Source: Betaproteobacteria bacterium TMED22
GTDB lineage: Bacteria; Pseudomonadota; Gammaproteobacteria; Burkholderiales; Eutrophovitaceae
Assembly: GCA_002167745.1 (NCBI GenBank)
Contig: NHCB01000010.1
Location: 30,852-94,851, forward strand
Direction of reading: 5' to 3'
DNA: 64,000 nucleotides
In this document: piece after piece, positions 23,014 through 64,000 of the stretch
How positions within the stretch are numbered: the stretch's first letter is position 1
Layout of the letters: every line of letters begins with the position of its first letter
Made by a program: the position numbers and the translations under genes
The notes under the pieces: model-generated
Told to the model about the DNA's origin: nothing
What the model saw: only the letters and a program-made list of their open reading frames with translations
The model's database searches: none

Positions 23014-23143
23014 GTGTGTCCTTTCTTTACAGCAACACGGTTTATTCACTAAGGCTTCCTCTTGTGCCTCCCAAGTCACAAAGTAAAGCGTGTATTCGTA
23101 TAAACTAAAGAAGATACAAAGAACTAATTATGTAAAGGGTAGC

Positions 23144-24517
23144 ATGTCTAACTACGATCTTATTGTAATAGGTGGCGGAAGCGGCGGCGTCGCAACAGCC
23201 AATCGCGCGAGCTCTTACGGGGCGAAAGTTGCGTTGATAGAAAAAGGGCGAATGGGTGGCACCTGCGTTAACGTTGGGTGTGTGCCCAAAAAAATTATGT
23301 GGTCGGCCGCCAGCCTTCATGAGGCGTTCACAGAAGCAAAAAACTATGGATTTGAAGCTCAAATCAATGGGCTGGATTGGGCGAAGCTCAAAGATCAGCG
23401 AGATAACTATATTCAAAGGCTCAATGCCGGTTATGAACGTGGGTTGGATGGGAATAAAGTTGAAGTTATTAAAGGTGAAGCAGTTTTTGAATCAAAAAAT
23501 ACAATCGTTGTTGGAGAAAAAAGGTTTGAAAGCTCTCACATATTAATTGCAACCGGTGGCTATCCAATGGTTCCGGATACTACTGGCGCTCAACTAGGCA
23601 TTACATCAGATGGTTTTTTTGAACTTAAAAAACAACCTAAAAAAGTCGCTGTTATTGGTGCAGGTTATATTGCTGTGGAATTCTCCGGCCTTCTCAATGC
23701 TCTTGGTTCGGATGTATCACTCTTTCTGAGAAGAAACGAGTTTTTACGTCATTTTGATCATTCGATTCGCGCACGCTTAACGGAGGAGATGGACAAGGAC
23801 GGAGTTCGAATAGTTAAAAATACAGCGATCAAAGAGCTCATCAGCCAAAACGGTACGCTTTCCTTAAAATCAACCTCTGATGAAATACACACTGATTTTG
23901 AAGAAGTCATATGGGCAGTAGGCCGCACGCCGAATACACACACGCTCAATCTCAAAAGTACAGGGGTACGCACGACAAAATCGGGGCATGTCACGGTCAA
24001 TAAATATCAAGAGACTAATATCTCTGGAATCTATGCCGTTGGAGACATAACGGGACATCACGAATTAACACCCGTTGCTATTGCAGCGGGTAGGCGTCTG
24101 GCTGATCGATTATTTGATGGGCAGGAAGATCGTCACCTAGTTTATGAAAACATACCAACGGTCATATTCAGCCATCCTCCAATCGGAACCGTGGGACTAA
24201 CCGAAGAAGAAGCCATCGAAAAATTCGGCATCACCAACGTTAGGGTCTATGAAAGCCAATTTAAACCTATGCACTACGCATTTAATCCAGAGGGAGCCCG
24301 TTGTCTAATGAAGTTAATCGTAGCCGGACCAGAAGAACAAGTCATAGGATGCCATGGCATCGGGATGGGTATGGATGAAATGATGCAAGGCTTTGCAGTT
24401 GCAGTTCGTATGGGCGCAACCAAAAAAGATTTCGATGAAACCGTGGCGATTCATCCAACGGCTGCAGAAGAAATGGTCACCATGAAAACATCTAGAGCGG
24501 CTGAAAATAATAATTAA
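23144..24517 (+). CDS. gor: glutathione-disulfide reductase
   Basis: GGGSGG FAD motif, redox-active [13 protein letters not shown], and a C-terminal HPTAAEE His-Glu pair. Start moved to ATG 23144 ([12 protein letters not shown]). Confidence 0.85.
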
Positions 24518-55995: not shown

Positions 55996-57480
55996 TTAGC
56001 GGCGAATATAATACTTATCTAATAAGCGGGCATCATCAAAATGACGACGTCCGACAAACGCGGTGGCATGTCGACCCCATTGACGCATTGCTCCAGGACT
56101 CGCAATGCCAGAAGGCCATAACAAAAATCGTTCACCACGTTCAGAGCCAGAAACGATACCGTTTACTCCAAATAAGTTTCTATGTCCTTTAGCAGTCTTT
56201 ATCGAGCGAAGGTCATTATAGTCTCTCAATGCGTATACTCGCGCTTCTTGCTTGCGGGTGCCGAACGCAACGTCAGCCAAATAATGTGTTTTAGTTTGAA
56301 CCGTAATATTGACTGCCAAATCAGGTGTAACCTCATTAAATTGTTTGGGTGAGAATGCCCACTCAGTGTATTTGCTGGGCGAAACCGTGGGTGTTAAGCG
56401 ACCCGTAGGAAAAAACATGTGGTAACAACCGCAGGGATGGATCGAATCAAAAACTAATGGTCCTCCGTCGTAATCCAGCGTAACGCGCCACATAATGCCG
56501 TCTAAGTTACCACCAAGAAGATCACCTATATTCTCTTTAGGACGCGCTGAAAACCAAGCGACGTAAACAAGCTGCGGTAGTGTCTTACCTTCAAACCGAG
56601 TGTGCGTCAGATGAGTGTAAACGGTAGGCTCAGAGGTGTTTACTCCTGCTTTGCCCGAATTTGAAAAATTCACCGCCCCAATTCGATCGAACTCGCCCGA
56701 GTCCTCAATCGTTAATACAGGCGCATATGTAACAAATAATTTCGACAGAAGATCTGGAGGCAACGTTAGTCGACCTAGCGAATCGCGCTGCCTCAGTAAC
56801 TCCGCCACCTCGTTTGGTTGTAGTATTTTTTTTGCAGTCGGTTCGTACCGCCTACTGGAAGCAGCTTCGACGCCAACTTTCATATATCGGTCAAATGTAT
56901 CTCGCGCTTCCTTATGCCAGTCTCCGATACCTTGAACAAATGGAATTTTCAAAAATGAATAAAAACCTAATACTCTTTTGACAGTGCTATAGTCATCTGG
57001 AACCGATACGCGTTTACGTAGATGCGAAAGATTATCAAATGGCTTCTCTGTATAACTACGTTTAATGAGGACTGAACATCTACTGTCGACATCCTGAATG
57101 GTCAGGCGGTCATTACCCAACATCAACAGTCCAGTTTCACTCAAATTATTGATCTCAATTTGACGGCCTTCCCAGTTAAGATCAACCATAGCCGAGATCC
57201 AGTCATTAAATATACTCGGTTCTTTATGAACTAAGTCCGAAAAAGAAGCCAGAAAACGATTAACTCTCAGATAAGGATACCCCTCAACTCTCGTGGCTCC
57301 AAAATCACGAACGCCATCCTGCTTAATGACGCTATCAAGTTTATTGGACCAGTTACGACAAAACTCATCTGATATTTCGAAAGAGTATTTGTCTTTAAAC
57401 TCGAGAATAGAGGATGTGCGTATTGCACACCCAGTCATTAGCACAATCAAAATCGCCACAAACACTATCCGCTGATACAT
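55996..57480 (-). CDS. lipoprotein, unknown function
   Basis: Lipobox LMTG/C at residues 15-18; 494 aa. No family recognised. Starts 6 nt after the SRPBCC gene's stop, so probably co-transcribed. Confidence 0.5.
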   Translation of the reverse strand: MYQRIVFVAILIVLMTGCAIRTSSILEFKDKYSFEISDEFCRNWSNKLDSVIKQDGVRDFGATRVEGYPYLRVNRFLASFSDLVHKEPSIFNDWISAMVDLNWEGRQIEINNLSETGLLMLGNDRLTIQDVDSRCSVLIKRSYTEKPFDNLSHLRKRVSVPDDYSTVKRVLGFYSFLKIPFVQGIGDWHKEARDTFDRYMKVGVEAASSRRYEPTAKKILQPNEVAELLRQRDSLGRLTLPPDLLSKLFVTYAPVLTIEDSGEFDRIGAVNFSNSGKAGVNTSEPTVYTHLTHTRFEGKTLPQLVYVAWFSARPKENIGDLLGGNLDGIMWRVTLDYDGGPLVFDSIHPCGCYHMFFPTGRLTPTVSPSKYTEWAFSPKQFNEVTPDLAVNITVQTKTHYLADVAFGTRKQEARVYALRDYNDLRSIKTAKGHRNLFGVNGIVSGSERGERFLLWPSGIASPGAMRQWGRHATAFVGRRHFDDARLLDKYYIRR

Positions 57481-57486
57481 CAGAAC

Positions 57487-58083
57487 TTAATCTCCCATAT
57501 CCTTATGATTGCCTAACTTCTTCTTTTCTTTTTCAATCTGAGAAACGATTCCTAAAAATTGACGACGGATATTATTTCGAATGAAACGCTCTGCTATAAA
57601 ATTAGGTATCGGTAACGATGGATCTAGATAACCCGACCAAGATAAACCCCAAAGATCGTCATCTCCAACTTTAGACAAATGATACCCACCTGATAAATGG
57701 TCCAGATTTCCCGACACTAACTCAATATTTATAGAATAAGGCTTAATCTCGATAGATTTAACAATGACATCAACTGGAATTTTTAAAAAAAGTAAATTGG
57801 ACACTCCGTATTGCTCAACGAAAGCAATATGGCCCTCGTAGCGCAGCAAACGACTCGATTGCATGCCTGGAACGTATTCCGCTAACCGATTGTAATCCGT
57901 CAACACTCTCCATATGAGTTTATGGGGCGCCTTAATGATACTTTCAACTTCCACGTAGACCACACCGTTCTCAATTGAGGAAAAAACCCGCAATTGATCG
58001 CCTTTACTCAACGCGACGTTAGAGTTGGCCAGAAAGCATCCAAAAGAGAACAAAATCAAAATCAGTCGTTTTTTATGCTTCAT
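57487..58083 (-). CDS. exported SRPBCC (START/polyketide-cyclase-like ligand-binding) family protein
   Basis: Signal peptide, then an SRPBCC-like pattern (VEVESIIKAPHKLIWRVLTDYNRLAEYVPGM...); 198 aa. Confidence 0.5.
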   Translation of the reverse strand: MKHKKRLILILFSFGCFLANSNVALSKGDQLRVFSSIENGVVYVEVESIIKAPHKLIWRVLTDYNRLAEYVPGMQSSRLLRYEGHIAFVEQYGVSNLLFLKIPVDVIVKSIEIKPYSINIELVSGNLDHLSGGYHLSKVGDDDLWGLSWSGYLDPSLPIPNFIAERFIRNNIRRQFLGIVSQIEKEKKKLGNHKDMGD

Positions 58084-58166: not shown

Positions 58167-59126
58167 ATGCACGATACCCTATCACTTCTTAACACTCAGC
58201 AGTTCCCTGCCATTAGCAGGGAAAAAATTGAAACGGTACAGATCAACCTTGGCTACCGATGTAATCAAGCATGTCTCCACTGCCATGTTAATGCCAGCCC
58301 AGACCGAAAAGAACAAATGTCACGCCATACTATCCGGCAGGTAATTGAATTCATCGATAGGGTCAAGCCAACAGTAGTTGACCTCACTGGAGGTGCGCCC
58401 GAGCTGAATCCGCACTTCAGAGAACTAGTCTCAGAGATACGAGATCGAAGGATCTCAATAATCGACCGATGTAATCTGACAATTCTATTCGAGCCTAAAC
58501 AAGAGGACCTGCACAGCTTCTTATCGCATCATCAGGTGACCATCACGGCCTCACTGCCTTGCTATTCTGAAAGCAACGTCAATTCTCAAAGAGGCGATGG
58601 CGTCTTCAAAAAAAGTATTGACGGATTACGCTTACTTAATGACGTGGGTTACGGTCATGGGGATCCAAACTTACAGCTACATTTGGTTTATAACCCATTA
58701 GGGGCGTCATTACCGCCCCCTCAAGAGGCATTAGAAATTGAGTACAAGGAACATTTGGCCAAAAACTATGGAGTAAAATTTGATACGCTGCTCACAATTA
58801 CTAACATGCCTATTAAACGGTTTGGAAGTACCTTAGTGAGCCGTGGAGAATTTAAAAAATACATGCAGTTATTGAAGGATAACTATAGCGAAGAAAACGT
58901 AAGTTCAGTTATGTGTAAATCATTAGTCTCTATTGACTGGGAAGGTTACTTGTTTGACTGTGACTTTAATCAAATGCTTGGTCTACCCTTAGGAGACTCA
59001 ACACAAAAAACTCACATTCAAGACTTAAATACAGATCGCATTCACGGTAAATCGATTGCGGTCCGGGATCATTGCTTCGGCTGTACTGCTGGACGTGGCT
59101 CAAGCTGCAGCGGGGCTCTTCAGTAA
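58167..59126 (+). CDS. arsS: radical SAM/Cys-rich domain protein, ArsS-like (arsenosugar-type radical SAM family)
   Basis: Radical SAM CxxxCxxC (CNQACLHC, 58261-58284) inside LGYRCNQACLHCHVNASP, and a C-terminal Cys-rich tail CFGCTAGRGSSCSGALQ. Matches my recollection of the TIGR04167-type family. Confidence 0.75.
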   Translation: MHDTLSLLNTQQFPAISREKIETVQINLGYRCNQACLHCHVNASPDRKEQMSRHTIRQVIEFIDRVKPTVVDLTGGAPELNPHFRELVSEIRDRRISIIDRCNLTILFEPKQEDLHSFLSHHQVTITASLPCYSESNVNSQRGDGVFKKSIDGLRLLNDVGYGHGDPNLQLHLVYNPLGASLPPPQEALEIEYKEHLAKNYGVKFDTLLTITNMPIKRFGSTLVSRGEFKKYMQLLKDNYSEENVSSVMCKSLVSIDWEGYLFDCDFNQMLGLPLGDSTQKTHIQDLNTDRIHGKSIAVRDHCFGCTAGRGSSCSGALQ

Positions 59127-59281: not shown

Positions 59282-61459
59282 ATGAACATCACAAACCTCC
59301 AAAAGAAATGGATTAGCTCAATCATTGGGTTTGTAATAGTCGCCATATTATTTATTTTATTTCGGGACACTTTTCTAAATTTTCTCGCGCAATTAAATCT
59401 TGAATTCTTAAAAGAGAACTACTCGGGACTAAGGATTTACTTTAAAAATCATCCGATCGAATCAAGCCTGATATATGTGGCCATATACACCTTAGCTACC
59501 GCTTTATCCATTCCAGGTGCCATAATTTTAACAATCGCCGGAGGAGCTATATTCGGATTATTATGGGGTACAGTTCTAGCATCCTTTTCCTCGACTATTG
59601 GCGCGACTATTGCTTTTTTGATTACGCGCTATTTTTTAAGAAACTCTGTTAGGGCACGCCTGGGAGATAAATTAAAAATAATCAATGACGGAATTAAAAA
59701 AGATGGAGCTTTTTATCTTCTAACACTCAGATTAGTTCCAATTTTCCCTTTCTTCGCAATTAATGTGCTGATGGCATTAACTCCGATTAAGGCCCATACG
59801 TTTTATATCGCTAGTCAAATCGGAATGCTGCTGGGAACAATCATATTTGTGAATGCAGGAACTCAGCTGGCCACGCTTAATTCAGCCGGCGAAATATTAT
59901 CCGTAAACTTAATTATTTCTCTTTGTATCATAGGATTATTTCCGATAACCGCAAAATTTCTATCAGACCTGATTGATAGACGAAGAATCTATACCAACTG
60001 GTCAAAACCAAAAAACTTTGACTATAACCTTATAGTTATTGGGGGAGGCGCCGCTGGACTTGTATCGTCCTACATTGGTGCCGCTGTGCATGCCAAAGTC
60101 GCCCTCATTGAAAAACATAAAATGGGTGGTGATTGCCTCAATACAGGTTGCGTGCCTTCAAAAGCGCTGATCAAAACGGCTCACTTTATTGAGGAAGCAA
60201 GACAATCCAAGAGATTGGGGATCCAAAAAACAGAAATTACCTTTAACTTCTCAGATGTAATGAGACGCGTCCACAGGATCATAAAGAAAATAGAGCCTCA
60301 TGATTCTGTAGAGCGGTATGAAAAACTTGGGGTAACTTGCCTGAAAGGGGATGCGAGAGTGGTATCGCCTTGGACGGTCTCGTACGCAGGCCCTAATGGA
60401 CAACAAGAAATTAGTGCTCGCTCAATCATTATTGCGGCAGGTGCAAGTCCCATAGTGCCGTACTTGCCCAATCTCAATGAAGTCAATTACTCTACATCAG
60501 ACACTATCTGGGATTTAAATGATCTCCCGGATAACTTGATCGTTATCGGAGGTGGTGCGGTCGGTTCGGAATTAGCCCAAGCCTTTCAACGCCTGGGTTC
60601 GGAAGTGATTTTGATTGAGTCCCAAGATCGCATATTACTTAAAGAAGATCCTGAGGTCTCAGAAACAATTAACAACCAACTATCAGATGAAGGCGTAGCA
60701 ATTCTCACCCGCCATCGCGCCAAAGGTTTCATAAAAGAAAAAAATATCCAGACATTAGTCTGCGATAGTCCTAACGGCGAGGTCAAATTGAACTTTGACC
60801 AAGTCCTTTTTGCCATCGGTAGACAAGCTAATATTCAGGGTTATGGCCTCGAGGACATTGAGGCCATAACCATAGAAGATATAGTTTTACCTACTAATGA
60901 ATTTCTTGAAACAAAATTCCCAAATATATATGCATGCGGTGACGTGACGGGCAGGATGCAATTTACTCATGCTGCTGCACACCAAGCATGGTATGCGGCA
61001 GTTAATGCACTTTTCGGTTATTTTAAAAAGTTTACTGTAGATTTTTCATATGTTCCATGGGCCACCTTCACACATCCGCAAGTTGCCCGGGTAGGATTAA
61101 ATGAGAAAGACGCGACGAAAAAAAAGATCGATTATGAGGTGACCACATACGGACTAGACGAATTAGATCGCGCGATTACTGATTCTGAAGATCATGGCTT
61201 CGTGAAAGTCTTAACAAGTCCAAATACAGATCGAATTATTGGGGTAACGATAGTTGGTGAAAACGCGCCAGAGATTATTTCTGAATTTGTACTTGCCATA
61301 AAACATAAACTGGGTCTCAATAAAATTCTCTCCACTACTCATATATATCCCACTTTTTCTGAAGCTAACAAATATGTTTCTGGTGAATGGAAAAGAAAAC
61401 ACGCTTCCAAAACAATATTAAAAATACTCAAAACCTATCATCGCATAATGCGCAAATGA
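59282..61459 (+). CDS. TVP38/TMEM64 (DedA-like) membrane domain fused to a class I pyridine nucleotide-disulfide oxidoreductase
   Basis: N-terminal ~240 aa have 5-6 TM helices with a TVP38-like pattern (RLVPIFPFFAINV). From nt ~60020: IVIGGGAAGL, redox CxxxxC GGDCLNTGCVPSK (60134-60151), a second GGGAVG NAD site, and HIYPTFSE. No C-terminal Cys pair. Confidence 0.8.
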   Translation: MNITNLQKKWISSIIGFVIVAILFILFRDTFLNFLAQLNLEFLKENYSGLRIYFKNHPIESSLIYVAIYTLATALSIPGAIILTIAGGAIFGLLWGTVLASFSSTIGATIAFLITRYFLRNSVRARLGDKLKIINDGIKKDGAFYLLTLRLVPIFPFFAINVLMALTPIKAHTFYIASQIGMLLGTIIFVNAGTQLATLNSAGEILSVNLIISLCIIGLFPITAKFLSDLIDRRRIYTNWSKPKNFDYNLIVIGGGAAGLVSSYIGAAVHAKVALIEKHKMGGDCLNTGCVPSKALIKTAHFIEEARQSKRLGIQKTEITFNFSDVMRRVHRIIKKIEPHDSVERYEKLGVTCLKGDARVVSPWTVSYAGPNGQQEISARSIIIAAGASPIVPYLPNLNEVNYSTSDTIWDLNDLPDNLIVIGGGAVGSELAQAFQRLGSEVILIESQDRILLKEDPEVSETINNQLSDEGVAILTRHRAKGFIKEKNIQTLVCDSPNGEVKLNFDQVLFAIGRQANIQGYGLEDIEAITIEDIVLPTNEFLETKFPNIYACGDVTGRMQFTHAAAHQAWYAAVNALFGYFKKFTVDFSYVPWATFTHPQVARVGLNEKDATKKKIDYEVTTYGLDELDRAITDSEDHGFVKVLTSPNTDRIIGVTIVGENAPEIISEFVLAIKHKLGLNKILSTTHIYPTFSEANKYVSGEWKRKHASKTILKILKTYHRIMRK

Positions 61460-62277
61460 CAAACTCTGCCCATCACGCGAGTCATTACGAAAAATTCACC
61501 CGACTAATAATGGTGGCGGTCAGCCTCCTTACCACGTCAACGGTAAATGCTTTTGACCATTCTCATCACGAATTTAATTTGCTACTCAAAAAATATGTGA
61601 CTTGGGAGTTGAGTGGACACAACAGTACTGTCGATTATTCTGGTTTTAACGAGGATCGGGCAATTATGAGGGACTACTTAGAAAAAATTGCTGCTGTCTC
61701 TGAAAACGAGTTCGAGACATTTAACAAGGAAGAACAGCTGGCGTTTCTCATAAATGTCTATAACGCTTACACCGTCTTCTGGGTGTCACAACATCACGAA
61801 AATATAGACTCTATTAAAGATTTGGGCTCATTATTTAACAGCCCATGGAAACACAAGCGCTTCAGTCTTTTCGGAAACATCGTCAGTTTAGATTTCATAG
61901 AGCATGAACTAATACGAGAAAAAGGACGGTTCGATGAACCGAGAATTCATATGGCTGTGAACTGCGCTTCGATTAGTTGTCCTGCACTGAGACCACACGC
62001 ATATAGACCCTCGACTCTTGATGCGCAACTTCACGATAACACTATCCGATTCCTGTCCGACAATCGTCGCAACCATCTTAAGGATGGGATTTTATACATT
62101 TCGCCGATATTCAAGTGGTACAAGGCTGACTTCGAGCAACGATCTGGGTCGGTACTTGAATGGCTGAGCGCTTACTCATCTCCTTTGAATAAGGACCTCG
62201 ACTTTGTTAACCGTGACAAGATAAAAATTAAATATACACACTACGATTGGTCATTAAATACACGTCGTCGCAAATAG
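61456..62277 (+). CDS. exported DUF547 domain protein
   Basis: DUF547-type motif EPRIHMAVNCASISCPAL. ATG 61456 overlaps the upstream TGA (ATGA) and gives a signal-anchor N-terminus, so it is preferred over 61387. Confidence 0.7.
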   Translation: MTNSAHHASHYEKFTRLIMVAVSLLTTSTVNAFDHSHHEFNLLLKKYVTWELSGHNSTVDYSGFNEDRAIMRDYLEKIAAVSENEFETFNKEEQLAFLINVYNAYTVFWVSQHHENIDSIKDLGSLFNSPWKHKRFSLFGNIVSLDFIEHELIREKGRFDEPRIHMAVNCASISCPALRPHAYRPSTLDAQLHDNTIRFLSDNRRNHLKDGILYISPIFKWYKADFEQRSGSVLEWLSAYSSPLNKDLDFVNRDKIKIKYTHYDWSLNTRRRK

Positions 62278-62288
62278 TACTCTCGGTC

Positions 62289-62975
62289 ATGAATCAAAAA
62301 GTCTCATTATCGGTAATCATCCCTGTGCGTAACGAAGAGGAGCGCCTTCCCATTTTGCTAACTGCGCTTCACAAGCAAAAATCAGCTACGACAGAAATCA
62401 TAGTGATCGATGGGTGTAGCGATGACAACACACTAAACGTCATTTGCCACAAAAAAAATCACGTACTTCATTCAGAGTCCGGCCGAGCCAAACAAATGAA
62501 CGTTGGCGCAAGATATGCTCGAGGAAACTATTTATGGTTCGTACATGCCGACTCTACGATTGACTTTGACTTTGAAACTATTATTGAAACAGCACTACAA
62601 AACCGTAATTGGGGTTGGTTTGACGTACGATTAGATAATCAAAAATTAATATTTCGTGTAATTGAATCGATGATGAACTTTCGAGCAAGAGTCACGCGTA
62701 TTGCTACGGGGGATCAAGGTATTTTTATTCGTAAAGATAATTTTTTAGAACAAGGCCTCTTTCCATCCATTGCATTAATGGAGGATGTCAGTTTTTCAAA
62801 AAAACTTAAGGCTATAGGAAAACCATTCGTAAGCAATATTCGAATAAAGACATCAACTAGACGGTGGGAACACTATGGCCCGATACGTACAATTTTTAAG
62901 ATGTGGAGTTTACGGCTACTATTTTTTTTCGGCGTATCACCAGACTGGCTGAATGACCAGTACAAAAAGTCATGA
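62289..62975 (+). CDS. family-2 glycosyltransferase-like protein (rSAM-associated type)
   Basis: LSVIIPVRNEE N-terminus, DGCSDD (DxD-like) and FVHADS motifs. Start moved to ATG 62289. Confidence 0.7.
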   Translation: MNQKVSLSVIIPVRNEEERLPILLTALHKQKSATTEIIVIDGCSDDNTLNVICHKKNHVLHSESGRAKQMNVGARYARGNYLWFVHADSTIDFDFETIIETALQNRNWGWFDVRLDNQKLIFRVIESMMNFRARVTRIATGDQGIFIRKDNFLEQGLFPSIALMEDVSFSKKLKAIGKPFVSNIRIKTSTRRWEHYGPIRTIFKMWSLRLLFFFGVSPDWLNDQYKKS

Positions 62976-63610
62976 TGAACGACACTAACCAAAAGATAGG
63001 CACATTAATCCAAATATTTACCAGAGCCCCGGTCGAGGGCGAAGTCAAGACAAGACTTATCCCTGAGTTAGGCGCACGTGGGTCGTGTGAACTTCACAAG
63101 CGTATGTCACTTCATATTTTGAACGTCGCGACAAAAGTATCACCTGCAATTGAGATTTGGAGTACGCCAGACATCGATCATCCTTTTTTCACGAGCTTAG
63201 ATTCTAACCCAGCCTTAAAAGTACAAGTTGGCGAATCTTTAGCCGAGCGAATGGCCTCCTCACTCATTCACGGGCTGAAAAAACATAAGAAAGTCGTGCT
63301 AATCGGTTGTGACTGTCCTATCATCGATGAAGAAATCTTGCTTAGGGCTTTTTCGCTTTTAGACAACCATGAATATGTGTTTATCCCTGTTGAGGATGGT
63401 GGATTTTCTTTAATTGGTTCGGTTTCATTCTCATCCTCAATCTTCCAAAAGGTCACATGGGGGAGTAACTTAGTGATGAGACAAGTCAGACATAATTTAA
63501 AAAAAAACCATTATTCATGGGCAGAACTGCCTACACTGTGGGACGTAGATCAATTCGCCGACTTTAAGCGGTTAAATCAGCAAATGCCTAGCGTAACAAC
63601 CGACCTTTAA
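62972..63610 (+). CDS. DUF2064 nucleotidyltransferase-like protein (rSAM-associated type)
   Basis: IFTRAPVEGEVKTRL N-terminus, IGCDCP and EDGGFSLIG motifs typical of DUF2064/CofC-MobA-like proteins. ATGA overlap with the upstream stop. Confidence 0.65.
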   Translation: MMNDTNQKIGTLIQIFTRAPVEGEVKTRLIPELGARGSCELHKRMSLHILNVATKVSPAIEIWSTPDIDHPFFTSLDSNPALKVQVGESLAERMASSLIHGLKKHKKVVLIGCDCPIIDEEILLRAFSLLDNHEYVFIPVEDGGFSLIGSVSFSSSIFQKVTWGSNLVMRQVRHNLKKNHYSWAELPTLWDVDQFADFKRLNQQMPSVTTDL

Positions 63611-63674: not shown

Positions 63675-64000
63675 ATGAAGACGATCATACTCATCGGCGG
63701 AGGACATAGCCATCTAGAAGCAATTTATCGTTTAGGCGAAGGGTCGTTACTTAACGATTGCAAATTGATATTGATTAGCAGTGAGACACACACCTCATAC
63801 TCAGGGATGATTCCTGGATTAATCTCGGGTCATTACACATTCGAAGAATGTCATATCGATCTTCAAAGATTATGTAACAAATATAACTGTAGCTTTATAC
63901 AACAATCGGTTTCAAAAATCTTACCAACTGAGCAAAAAATACTCACCGAAAGCGAGACTTATCACTACGACCTTGCATCCATCAATACGGGCTCAATCCC
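63675..64000 (+). CDS. FAD-dependent pyridine nucleotide-disulfide oxidoreductase, SelD-N-terminal-type/NDH-II-like, 3' end cut by window edge
   Basis: Not in the ORF track. My translation from ATG 63675 is MKTIILIGGGHSHLEAIYRLG...THTSYSGMIPGLISGHYTFEECHIDLQRL...YDLASINTGSI, open to nt 64000. GGGHSH and YSGM(I/L)PG patterns match my recollection of the TIGR03169 family. Confidence 0.6.
   Translation, partial: MKTIILIGGGHSHLEAIYRLGEGSLLNDCKLILISSETHTSYSGMIPGLISGHYTFEECHIDLQRLCNKYNCSFIQQSVSKILPTEQKILTESETYHYDLASINTGSI

Follow-up and report, generated by a model that had tools for sequence, protein, structure and literature searches.

The DedA–reductase fusion and its operon

Towards the end of the window, the whole 64-kb stretch of TMED22 DNA analysed here, a gene at 59282..61459 (+) joins a YdjX/TVP38-type DedA (VTT) domain to a class I FAD/NAD(H) dithiol reductase, as seen from its open reading frame (ORF), Pfam domains, NCBIfam scores and AlphaFold 2 (AF2) model. 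Upstream on the same strand lies a gene for an ArsS-type radical SAM enzyme (58167..59126 (+); TIGR04167, 451 bits versus a cutoff of 300). Downstream follow genes for a DUF547 protein with a Sec-like signal peptide and an invariant CxxxxCP motif (61456..62277 (+)), a TIGR04283-family GT2 glycosyltransferase (62247..62975 (+), with the ATG at 62289 as the probable start; 249 bits versus a cutoff of 182) and a TIGR04282 (DUF2064) protein (62972..63610 (+); 174 bits versus 134), the last of which shares an ATGA overlap with the preceding gene. The DUF547 start overlaps the stop codon of the fusion gene in the same manner (ATGA), and from ArsS through to TIGR04282 neighbouring genes are spaced by 155, −4, 12 (or overlapping) and −4 nt in turn. 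The window closes within the 5′ part (63675..64000 (+)) of a gene for a TIGR03169 ('Nterm_to_SelD') FAD oxidoreductase, the full version of which occupies the same place in loci L001–L003; these loci and an Acinetobacter plasmid keep the same gene order.

The fusion lies in an ArsS/TIGR04283/TIGR04282 arsenosugar-type operon, with all three of these genes co-directional, tightly spaced with it and above their cutoffs. Within the 64-kb window we found no ArsM-like gene and no Rfam matches, and scans for promoters and terminators gave results at chance level. Genes for an SRPBCC protein and a 494-aa lipoprotein, located upstream, were considered as members of the module and rejected, being conserved among close relatives only.

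The fusion gene itself is a single ORF, with an ATG start and a TGA stop, that encodes 725 aa ending in ...TILKILKTYHRIMRK. Pfam places VTT_dom (PF09335; E = 8e-22, 78.4 bits versus a cutoff of 33.9) at aa 77–194, Pyr_redox_2 (PF07992) at aa 248–569 and Pyr_redox_dim (PF02852) at aa 591–696, in agreement with the initial annotation of this DNA, which had read a single 725-aa ORF combining a membrane part with a complete class I reductase. A single-sequence AlphaFold model was unusable (pLDDT 36), and an alignment-based AF2 model (pLDDT 92.6, pTM 0.83) was used in its place.

An ORF of this kind could arise if a sequencing or assembly error had merged two genes, an event that the initial annotation had named as fatal to its reading, and some other genomes do encode the two parts separately. 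However, the uninterrupted architecture and its conserved linker recur in thousands of independent assemblies, in complete chromosomes and on plasmids, which rules out an assembly artefact, and Logan assemblies yield an identical protein, P0001, recorded as a cluster with 14 members. The probability of an artefactual merger is negligible. The fusion of a TVP38/DedA-type domain with a flavoprotein reductase that had been proposed is borne out both by Pfam and by its homologues, which number at least 8000. The best 120 all combine VTT and reductase domains at lengths of about 710–737 aa, the fusion turns up in complete genomes as well as in 93 plasmid records, and VTT–reductase fusions can be traced down to about 32% identity. 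The 725-aa ORF is a genuine fusion that is very widespread among bacteria. Two proteins, P0204 and P0219, have the reverse domain order, and adjacent split genes are found as VTT|reductase|DUF547 at locus L085 and as VTT|reductase at locus L087. Because fusions occur in both domain orders and alongside adjacent split genes, functional coupling of the two halves is strongly backed.

The architecture is not new. PGAP/RefSeq names it 'bifunctional TVP38/TMEM64 family protein/FAD-dependent oxidoreductase', and Todor et al. (2023, PMC10127716) noted it as the commonest fusion of COG0398 DedA proteins. The TMED22 fusion is a further ortholog of this already named family: one polypeptide with an N-terminal VTT domain, C-terminal PF07992 and PF02852 domains and full-length homology. 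No functional study came up in literature searches covering the fusion, bacterial DUF547 and clusters of arsenosugar genes.

Membrane half and topology

Residues 1–231 (59282..59974 (+)) make up the membrane region, in which an N-terminal transmembrane (TM) helix (aa ~12–28) precedes the DedA core, as delineated by Pfam, identity to YdjX and YdjZ, hydropathy and the helices of the AF2 model. The core contains two helix–break–helix hairpin motifs, SIPGA (aa 76–80, 59507–59521 (+)) and LRLVPIFPFF (aa 149–158, 59726–59755 (+)), in which S76-P78-G79-A80 and R150-L151-P153-P156-F157 are invariant in the alignment of close relatives. The AF2 model breaks its helices at aa 75–79 and 152–156, giving the two re-entrant hairpins that characterize DedA proteins, and the VTT score above the Pfam gathering threshold places the domain in the DedA superfamily. 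R116 and R150 are its only conserved charged residues, and the family alignment contains no conserved Cys in this domain.

The DedA part is 32% identical to Escherichia coli YdjX (E = 2e-21) and 35% identical to YdjZ; these identities, the TVP38/TMEM64 name given by PGAP and the account of Todor et al. (2023, PMC10127716) suggest a place nearer to COG0398 than to the COG0586 proteins YqjA and YghB, in a comparison made against YdjX and YdjZ. That COG0398 DedA proteins are lipid scramblases has been put forward as a hypothesis only (Todor et al. 2023, PMC10127716).

A basic linker at aa 232–249 (DRRRIYTNWSKPKNFDYN; 59975..60028 (+)) connects the reductase to the final TM helix. Its conservation extends across the family alignment, where P243 is invariant and F246 and D247 reach at least 90%, and five K/R residues fall within aa 228–250. 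Hydropathy and charge analysis further finds a K/R-rich loop at aa 113–146 of the DedA region. The need for NADH places reductases of this type in the cytoplasm. Given the K/R-rich loop, the basic linker and this NADH requirement, the linker and reductase are predicted to face the cytoplasm, with both termini of the DedA domain probably cytoplasmic as well and aa 30–60 predicted to lie in the periplasm.

A tyrosine at the catalytic histidine position

The reductase half carries the FAD-binding motif GGGAAG (aa 254–259, 60041..60058 (+)), recognized from the sequence and the family alignment, the redox-active CLNTGC (aa 285–290, 60134..60151 (+)) and an NAD(H) site (60548..60619 (+)) consisting of GGGAVG (aa 423–428, 60548–60565) and Glu446, which closes the second beta strand; all three motifs had been read at their exact positions in the initial annotation. 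The Cys285/Cys290 pair is invariant in our alignment of closer relatives (A1) and at least 90% conserved in that of more distant relatives, which includes stand-alone reductases (A2). Glu446 is invariant, and its column holds Glu in dihydrolipoamide dehydrogenase (Lpd; 2eq7 and 1ebd) and Gln in mercuric reductase (MerA; 5x1y), an Lpd-like signature that suggests a preference for NADH. The family-specific motif EPHDS (aa 338–342, 60293..60307 (+)) is invariant in A1 and common in A2.

Near the C terminus, the sequence HIYPTFSE (aa 687–694, 61340..61363 (+)) had been taken for the His–Glu dimer-interface motif of a glutathione reductase (GR)-type enzyme. The sequence is present and Glu694 is kept, but the residue in the catalytic-His column is Tyr689. 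In HMMER alignments, Tyr689 pairs with the catalytic His of Lpd (2eq7, 1ebd; His452 in human E3, where the motif reads H450-A-H452-P...E457) and with the Tyr of MerA 5x1y, which we take to be Tyr605 in Bacillus numbering, and His687 pairs with the non-catalytic first His of the Lpd motif. At least 90% of fused and stand-alone relatives keep Y689 and P690; H687 is variable. A canonical glutathione reductase encoded elsewhere in the window (23138–24514) keeps its catalytic His, in 'AIHPTAAEE'. The reading of a GR-type His–Glu pair does not hold, Tyr689 being in a MerA-like state; the GR cutoffs are missed as well.

Foldseek searches against the PDB do not discriminate between Lpd and MerA: the fusion model gives target-normalised TM-scores of 0.90–0.95 to MerA structures and about 0.9 or more to Lpd. 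Could the fusion then be a true, if divergent, mercuric reductase that acts on Hg(II) directly or through the DedA domain and dispenses with the C-terminal Cys shuttle? Its best sequence match among solved structures is MerA 5x1y (1.7e-72), and it has both the class I core with CxxxxC and the Tyr of the MerA-specific column. However, its only Cys residues are 215, 285, 290, 353, 494 and 552, leaving none past residue 552, and a C-terminal Cys pair is likewise absent from the tails of the 27 closer and 44 more distant relatives listed; Pfam finds no HMA domain. In an alignment to 5x1y, with the position counted by hand, Ser342 of EPHDS falls in the column of the second active-site Tyr of MerA, presumably Tyr264 (Bacillus numbering), 52 residues past the second Cys. 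Glu446 replaces the Gln of MerA, the score against the MerA equivalog TIGR02053 is 368 bits versus a cutoff of 454.45, and no mer genes occur in any fusion neighbourhood inspected. On the Cys pair, Ser342, Glu446, the TIGR02053 score and the absent mer genes, we reject a true MerA as very improbable. The initial annotation had likewise held that the protein lacks an HMA domain and a C-terminal vicinal Cys pair and is probably not a mercuric reductase. As a check it had suggested an alignment to MerA, Gor, Lpd and CoA-disulfide reductases (CoADR); the alignments to MerA and Lpd and the equivalog scores favour it on MerA membership and also reveal a MerA-type Tyr689.

The same residue bears on whether the fusion is an ordinary low-molecular-weight disulfide reductase, resembling GR, Lpd or CoADR and tethered to the membrane by chance. 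Its class I fold, with the TM-score of 0.9 or more to Lpd, the retained CxxxxC and Glu694, and a score of 390 against the Lpd model TIGR01350, just under the cutoff of 408.8, are what such an enzyme would show. Yet at least 90% of the family has Tyr for the catalytic His, breaking the His–Glu dyad (H-P-T-x-x-E), the NCBIfam equivalog cutoffs for GR, Lpd, mycothione reductase and CoADR are all missed, and the window already encodes a canonical GR with HPT...EE. Further equivalog scores below cutoff are 290 versus 480 (NF004776) and 239 versus 556 and 260 versus 606 (TIGR01421/01424). We consider an ordinary disulfide reductase unlikely; Tyr689 weakens that reading and leaves room for soft-metal or metalloid chemistry.

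The best NCBIfam model, NF004991 (PRK06370.1-3), scores 458 bits, below its cutoff of 620, and covers the reductase together with a C-terminal basic amphipathic tail (aa 700–725, 61379..61456 (+)) that contains no Cys. The tail, recognized from its hydrophobic moment of up to 1.8, the AF2 model and alignments, is modelled with two helices at aa 694–707 and 710–724. Stand-alone relatives of ~475 aa share it. No solved structure offers an equivalent, and alignments to the PDB end at about aa 698–705.

A conserved tail of this kind in fused and stand-alone enzymes, combined with the NADH-type Glu446, raises the question of whether the protein is a membrane-surface NADH:quinone or lipid-hydroperoxide reductase for membrane redox or oxidative-stress defence, with the DedA domain as an anchor only and the amphipathic C-terminal helices helping to hold it at the membrane. 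NDH-2 and mycobacterial LpdA are membrane-associated comparators for such an anchored reductase. Peroxiredoxin-like, AhpD-like and DoxX genes neighbour the fusion in some loci, and Todor et al. (2023, PMC10127716) associate COG0398 with aerobes. Against this, Cys285 and Cys290 are at least 90% conserved although flavoprotein quinone reductases have no need of them, a complete and conserved DedA core with re-entrant-loop motifs exceeds what an anchor requires, and the repeated linkage to an exported DUF547 protein would go unexplained. This explanation too is improbable.

Gene neighbourhoods across relatives

We counted neighbours at 49 well-flanked loci from several phyla by direct phmmer searches, used in place of ORF clustering, which under-counted neighbours in high-GC loci owing to spurious antisense ORFs. 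Recurrent partners are present at 31 of the 49 loci and none of them at the other 18. The most frequent is DUF547 (16 loci, directly downstream of the fusion), followed by TIGR04283, DUF2064 and DUF3047 (13 each), ArsS (12) and TIGR03169 (11). The ArsS context is found in at least three clades. An ArsM-like gene lies 4–179 nt upstream of the fusion in four of the loci; the ArsM-like neighbours, all outside the window, fall below NCBIfam cutoffs. The Acinetobacter plasmid carries arsS, the fusion, DUF547, TIGR04283, TIGR04282, an ArsM-like methyltransferase and PiT, with mtnP nearby. Other contexts, namely bufferin-type DUF692 operons, CcdA/Trx and AhpD-like genes, are ones of metal stress or thiol redox.

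Co-occurrence with ArsS is therefore not obligate, and the arsenosugar-pathway link of the fusion is facultative. Because ArsS is adjacent in 12 of 49 loci and 18 have no partners, an arsenic-specific role cannot hold family-wide; for the same reasons, reduction of the pathway intermediate, which the initial annotation had offered as the function, is not general.

The DUF547 partner also adjoins stand-alone reductases, keeps its CxxxxCP in 24 of 24 cases and, in plants, is found fused to glutaredoxin. Exported, translationally coupled and equipped with an invariant Cys pair, it might receive reducing equivalents passed through the membrane domain, in the manner of DsbD or CcdA, and CcdA/Trx genes do lie nearby on one plasmid. 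But conserved Cys and other redox-active residues are absent from the DedA domain, which therefore shows no path for a trans-membrane thiol relay, and DsbD/CcdA-like transfer would require a diffusible or flipped small-molecule reductant. We regard it as highly unlikely.

Proposed mechanism

Our preferred reading, plausible but tentative, is that the fusion is an inner-membrane flavoenzyme with a cytoplasmic reductase, that its DedA domain handles a metalloid or chalcogen substrate, and that in this operon it keeps arsenicals trivalent for ArsS. Like every class I enzyme with this fold, the fusion is probably homodimeric. Electrons would pass from NADH, the donor suggested by Glu446, to FAD and on to the Cys285/Cys290 disulfide. 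Tyr689 would stand in for the usual His acid–base catalyst, a state otherwise seen in mercuric reductase and one that suggests As, Se, S or a metal, in a soft metalloid or chalcogen centre, as the target of the dithiol in place of an ordinary disulfide. The substrate may be taken from, or handed to, the DedA domain and moved across or within the membrane, with the translationally coupled DUF547 protein and its invariant CxxxxCP on the periplasmic side. This logic would be akin to that of MerP/MerT/MerA, 'bind outside, translocate, reduce inside', built from different parts.

In the TMED22 operon, the most likely job would be to keep arsenicals trivalent, for example by reducing DMAs(V) to DMAs(III). 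The trivalent form, which ArsS requires, would then be used by it to form the adenosyl-arsenical precursor of arsenosugars or arsenolipids; DMAs(III) is a substrate of ArsS (PMC13598754). Both the substrate and the direction assigned to the fusion are what we infer from its sequence and context. A broader proposal, possible but doubtful, is that the DedA–reductase fusion and the exported DUF547 protein, often with TIGR03169 and DUF3047, form an unrecognised trans-membrane 'translocate-and-reduce' module for metalloid or chalcogen substrates (As, Se, S, possibly lipid-linked).

For the YdjX/TVP38 (COG0398) branch of DedA proteins, in bacteria and arguably in eukaryotes too, domain fusions provide some of the scarce hints at the substrate. 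The fusions in both orders, the split genes, the MerA-like Tyr, the coupled DUF547 and the recurrent ArsS, ArsM-like, TIGR03169 and bufferin-type neighbours narrow the question to one enzyme. Should the fusion indeed hold arsenicals in the trivalent state for ArsS, it would supply a reductive step that is missing from arsenosugar or arsenolipid synthesis in bacteria; if not, it stays an ordinary, already annotated gene. The module, if it exists, would recreate Mer-like logic from unrelated parts and provide the first concrete biochemical handle on COG0398/TVP38-type DedA transport.

Comparison with known systems

The closest known system is the PGAP-named family of COG0398 DedA proteins joined to PF07992/PF02852, with which the TMED22 fusion has domain order, length and conserved motifs in common and from which it shows no essential difference; annotated plasmid copies in Pseudoalteromonas, Acinetobacter, Burkholderia glumae, Salmonella and others are 48–54% identical over 95–99% of the query. 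Its DedA core shares the re-entrant-loop motifs of E. coli YdjX and YdjZ (COG0398, to which the VTT domains of eukaryotic TVP38, TMEM41B and VMP1 correspond). Unlike these, it begins with an additional TM helix and continues into a reductase of 480 aa. A YnjF-like CDP-alcohol phosphatidyltransferase flanks the fusion in 9 of the 49 loci and a YnjC-like ABC permease in 6, just as such genes flank ydjXYZ in E. coli.

On the reductase side, the stand-alone NF004991 'FAD-containing oxidoreductases' (~475–509 aa) have the Tyr-Pro, the PHDS motif and the tail in common with the fusion and differ in that their reductase is not joined to a membrane domain; some stand-alone relatives of this type are encoded beside a separate VTT gene, a DUF547 gene or both. 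Lpd and GR share the fold, the FAD and NAD(H) motifs and Glu694, and Lpd also the NADH-type Glu, whereas the fusion has Tyr for the catalytic His, scores below their cutoffs, is fused to a membrane domain and bears an extra C-terminal tail. MerA (TIGR02053; PDB 5x1y, 1zk7 and 4ywo) has the class I fold, CxxxxC and the Tyr at the catalytic-His position in common with the fusion, which in contrast has no C-terminal Cys pair or NmerA, Ser for the second Tyr, an NADH-type Glu and a score below the cutoff; a basic amphipathic helix pair forms its C terminus in place of the Cys pair of MerA. Finally, the Mer system as a whole, including MerT and MerP, offers a probable parallel, in that a flavoprotein reductase in the cytoplasm is combined with a transporter in the membrane and a Cys-pair protein in the periplasm.

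A conserved two-domain architecture

The fusion gene is a single unbroken open reading frame of 725 aa (59282–61459, +), as the initial annotation described it. The N-terminal half carries a VTT/DedA domain (PF09335, aa 77–194; 78 bits against a Pfam gathering score of 34), and its first 240 residues share 32% identity with Escherichia coli YdjX (E 2e-21) and 35% with YdjZ, in keeping with the TVP38/TMEM64-like character assigned to it. The C-terminal half is, by Pfam, a complete class I pyridine nucleotide-disulfide oxidoreductase (Pyr_redox_2, aa 248–569; Pyr_redox_dim, aa 591–696), with GGGAAG (aa 254–259), CLNTGC (nt 60134–60151; Cys285/Cys290), GGGAVG (aa 423–428) and HIYPTFSE (aa 687–694) all located where they had first been read. 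An alignment-based AF2 model of the fusion reaches a pLDDT of 92.6.

An artefactual merger of two genes by sequencing or assembly error is rejected on several grounds. A word-indexed search returned at least 8,000 homologues, of which the best 120 (54–100% identity) share the same architecture at around 710–737 aa, except for a few shorter, apparently incomplete entries. Exhaustive HMMER searching found 54,890 relatives among 50%-identity representatives, in which the fused architecture reaches down to around 32% identity. Conservation extends to the linker, in which P243 is invariant, and the gene is present on complete chromosomes and in 93 plasmid records.

The two halves also occur in other arrangements, which count as evidence that they work together. 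In two relatives (P0204 and P0219) the order is reversed, with an N-terminal reductase and a C-terminal VTT domain, and the P0204 gene adjoins a DUF2064 gene. Split versions include a VTT gene (232 aa) that shares 11 nt with the reductase gene (491 aa) after it, with DUF547 following (L085, 341–3253), a VTT gene followed by a reductase gene (L087, 833–2919), and a reductase gene followed by DUF547 (L088). These reverse-order fusions and split versions indicate that the same two functions have been joined repeatedly and independently.

Within the membrane half, both of the helix-break-helix hairpins that characterise DedA proteins are kept, as the invariant SIPGA (aa 76–80) and LRLVPxFPFF (aa 149–158). 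The family alignment contains no conserved cysteine in this half, and R116 and R150 are its only conserved charged residues. From the lysine- and arginine-rich loop at aa 113–146 (8 K/R) and linker (5 K/R), together with the need for NADH, we infer that the reductase half is cytoplasmic. The last 26 residues, ending ...TILKILKTYHRIMRK, form a conserved basic amphipathic helix pair; the solved structures have no equivalent of this tail, which is present in stand-alone relatives of around 475 aa.

Tyrosine in the catalytic histidine column

The proposal that the protein is probably not a mercuric reductase is borne out by several comparisons with MerA. Its cysteines lie only at positions 215, 285, 290, 353, 494 and 552, so that it has no C-terminal pair, and a Pfam search of the 725-aa protein finds no HMA domain, both as initially annotated. 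In alignments, the second MerA tyrosine position is Ser342, within the invariant family motif EPHDS, and the second NAD-domain strand ends in an invariant Glu446, the residue of NADH-using Lpd, where MerA has Gln. The score with the MerA model TIGR02053 is 368, short of the cutoff of 454, and the inspected neighbourhoods contain no mer genes near the fusion. Cutoffs for Lpd, glutathione reductase (GR), mycothione reductase, RclA and CoADR are likewise not reached; the top-scoring model is NF004991, 'FAD-containing oxidoreductase' (458 bits against a cutoff of 620). Foldseek searches with the AF2 model gave target-normalised TM-scores of around 0.9 for Lpd and MerA structures alike; as modelled, the fold is simply class I.

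HIYPTFSE was initially taken as a His–Glu dimer-interface pair in a glutathione-reductase-type enzyme, and neither reading holds for the catalytic dyad. HMMER matches the H-A-H-P-T-L-S-E of Lpd structures (2eq7, 1ebd and human E3) to H687-I-Y689-P-T-F-S-E694, so that the catalytic base (human His452) corresponds to Tyr689 and His687 falls at the non-catalytic first His; MerA (5x1y) also has Tyr in the Tyr689 column. In an alignment of 45 relatives, both fused and stand-alone, conservation of Tyr689-Pro690 is at least 90%, and residue 687 varies (Y, F, L, V and R besides His). An internal control is provided by the housekeeping GR that the genome encodes besides the fusion (23138–24514, +; NF004776, 641 bits against 480), which retains 'AIHPTAAEE' with its HPT..EE dyad intact. 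Given the conservation of Tyr689 and the His kept by this GR, the fusion is not of the GR type at the dyad, which on these alignments is in a MerA-like state.

Genomic context

In the window, the fusion gene belongs to a compact cluster of co-directional genes. The gene for the radical SAM enzyme ArsS (58167–59126; TIGR04167, 451 bits against 300) lies 155 nt upstream, and the start of a DUF547 gene (61456–62277, +) overlaps the fusion stop codon as ATGA. A TIGR04283 glycosyltransferase gene follows, joined by another ATGA overlap to a TIGR04282/DUF2064 gene, and the window ends within the 5′ part of a gene for a TIGR03169 'Nterm_to_SelD' FAD oxidoreductase (63675–64000, +), a family fused to selenophosphate synthetase SelD in some organisms. 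We found no ArsM-like gene within the 64 kb and no Rfam family at gathering score anywhere in nt 1–64000; around the operon, sites resembling promoters or terminators are as frequent as expected by chance. Divergent from the operon, a 494-aa reading frame with a lipoprotein-type signal, LMTGC (55996–57480, −), and no Pfam or NCBIfam match adjoins a gene for an exported SRPBCC/polyketide-cyclase-like protein (57487–58083, −); both are kept only in close relatives (L001–L003, L011 and L041).

We compared 80 loci from Gamma-, Beta- and Alphaproteobacteria, Desulfobacterota, Magnetococcales, Gemmatimonadota and Chloroflexota, counting partners in the 49 with at least 5 kb on each side. Of the 49, 31 have one or more of the recurrent partners, nearly always in the same orientation and a short distance away, and 18 have none. 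DUF547 is the most frequent (16/49) and always immediately downstream, followed by TIGR04283, DUF2064 and DUF3047 (13 each), ArsS (12), TIGR03169 (11), a YnjF-like CDP-alcohol phosphatidyltransferase (9) and a YnjC-like ABC permease (6). A TIGR03169 gene comes after the cluster in 18 of all 80 loci, in four an ArsM-like methyltransferase gene precedes the fusion by 4–179 nt, and a neighbour-joining tree spreads the ArsS context over at least three clades.

The Acinetobacter portensis plasmid pJNE5-X3_NDM-1 (L091, 6983–15274) carries arsS, the fusion, DUF547, TIGR04283, TIGR04282, an ArsM-like methyltransferase and a PiT phosphate transporter, flanked by a convergent MTA phosphorylase gene and CcdA/Trx/peroxiredoxin-like genes; the presence of the whole set on an NDM-1 resistance plasmid argues that the module is mobile. 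On Burkholderia glumae plasmid bglu_2p (L092, 5503–10130) and a Salmonella IncC plasmid (L090, 6207–12197), the fusion comes straight after a DUF2282-DUF692-DUF2063-DoxX operon, a gene set that matches the copper-binding 'bufferin' RiPP systems, and adjoins a TIGR03169-like oxidoreductase gene. ECF sigma/anti-sigma genes are also close by.

The DUF547 protein has a Sec-like signal peptide. Its H-x-A-x-x-C-A-S-[IV]-[GS]-C-P motif (CxxxxCP) is invariant in all 24 copies, which often contain no further cysteine. DUF547 also occurs in plant class IV GRXs, as a fusion with a glutaredoxin domain (PMC13621322).

Proposed mechanism

The active site of class I enzymes is formed jointly by two subunits, and the fusion would be a dimeric inner-membrane enzyme in which cytoplasmic NADH reduces the Cys285/Cys290 disulfide through FAD. 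The dithiol, with Tyr689 in place of the acid–base His, would probably have a soft metalloid or chalcogen centre as its target and not a simple disulfide, and substrate would be exchanged with the fused DedA domain. This domain keeps the arginines that in other DedA proteins are thought to bind anionic head groups (PMC10127716). The exported DUF547 Cys-pair protein would act on the periplasmic side. ArsS adenosylates DMAs(III) to DDMAA (PMC13598754), and the simplest role in the window operon would be to supply or regenerate trivalent arsenicals, with MTA phosphorylase, TIGR04282 and TIGR04283 as plausible downstream steps. We hold this model as a whole tentatively, at somewhat below even chances. 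The broader version, in which thiol-based reduction is coupled to DedA-mediated translocation, is likelier than the one specific to arsenic, because many loci lack arsenic genes.

Relation to known systems

The fusion is genuine and looks like an ordinary member of a named, functionally uncharacterised family. RefSeq already has a name for the architecture, which is the commonest COG0398 fusion according to Todor et al. 2023 (PMC10127716), and PGAP would annotate the whole operon with existing names. What may be new is the Tyr-for-His observation, the occurrence of fusions in both orders alongside split genes, and the linkage with DUF547, TIGR03169 and DUF3047; as comparative findings these are modest. 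The fusion offers a moderately interesting way into the function of DedA/TVP38 proteins and the reductive step of organoarsenical synthesis.

A parallel is found in E. coli K-12 (L084, 1833401–1841403), where ydjX and ydjZ lie with ynjA (AhpD-like), ynjBCD, ynjE (sulfurtransferase) and ynjF. YnjF-like or YnjC-like genes stand beside the fusion in loci L030, L036, L048, L050, L057, L078, L079 and L081, and a Grimontia neighbour is 60% identical to YnjF. In several genomes the genes that flank the fusion thus mirror the ydjXYZ-ynjABCDEF arrangement of E. coli, a hint that COG0398 DedA proteins may be connected with a pathway for phospholipid head groups.
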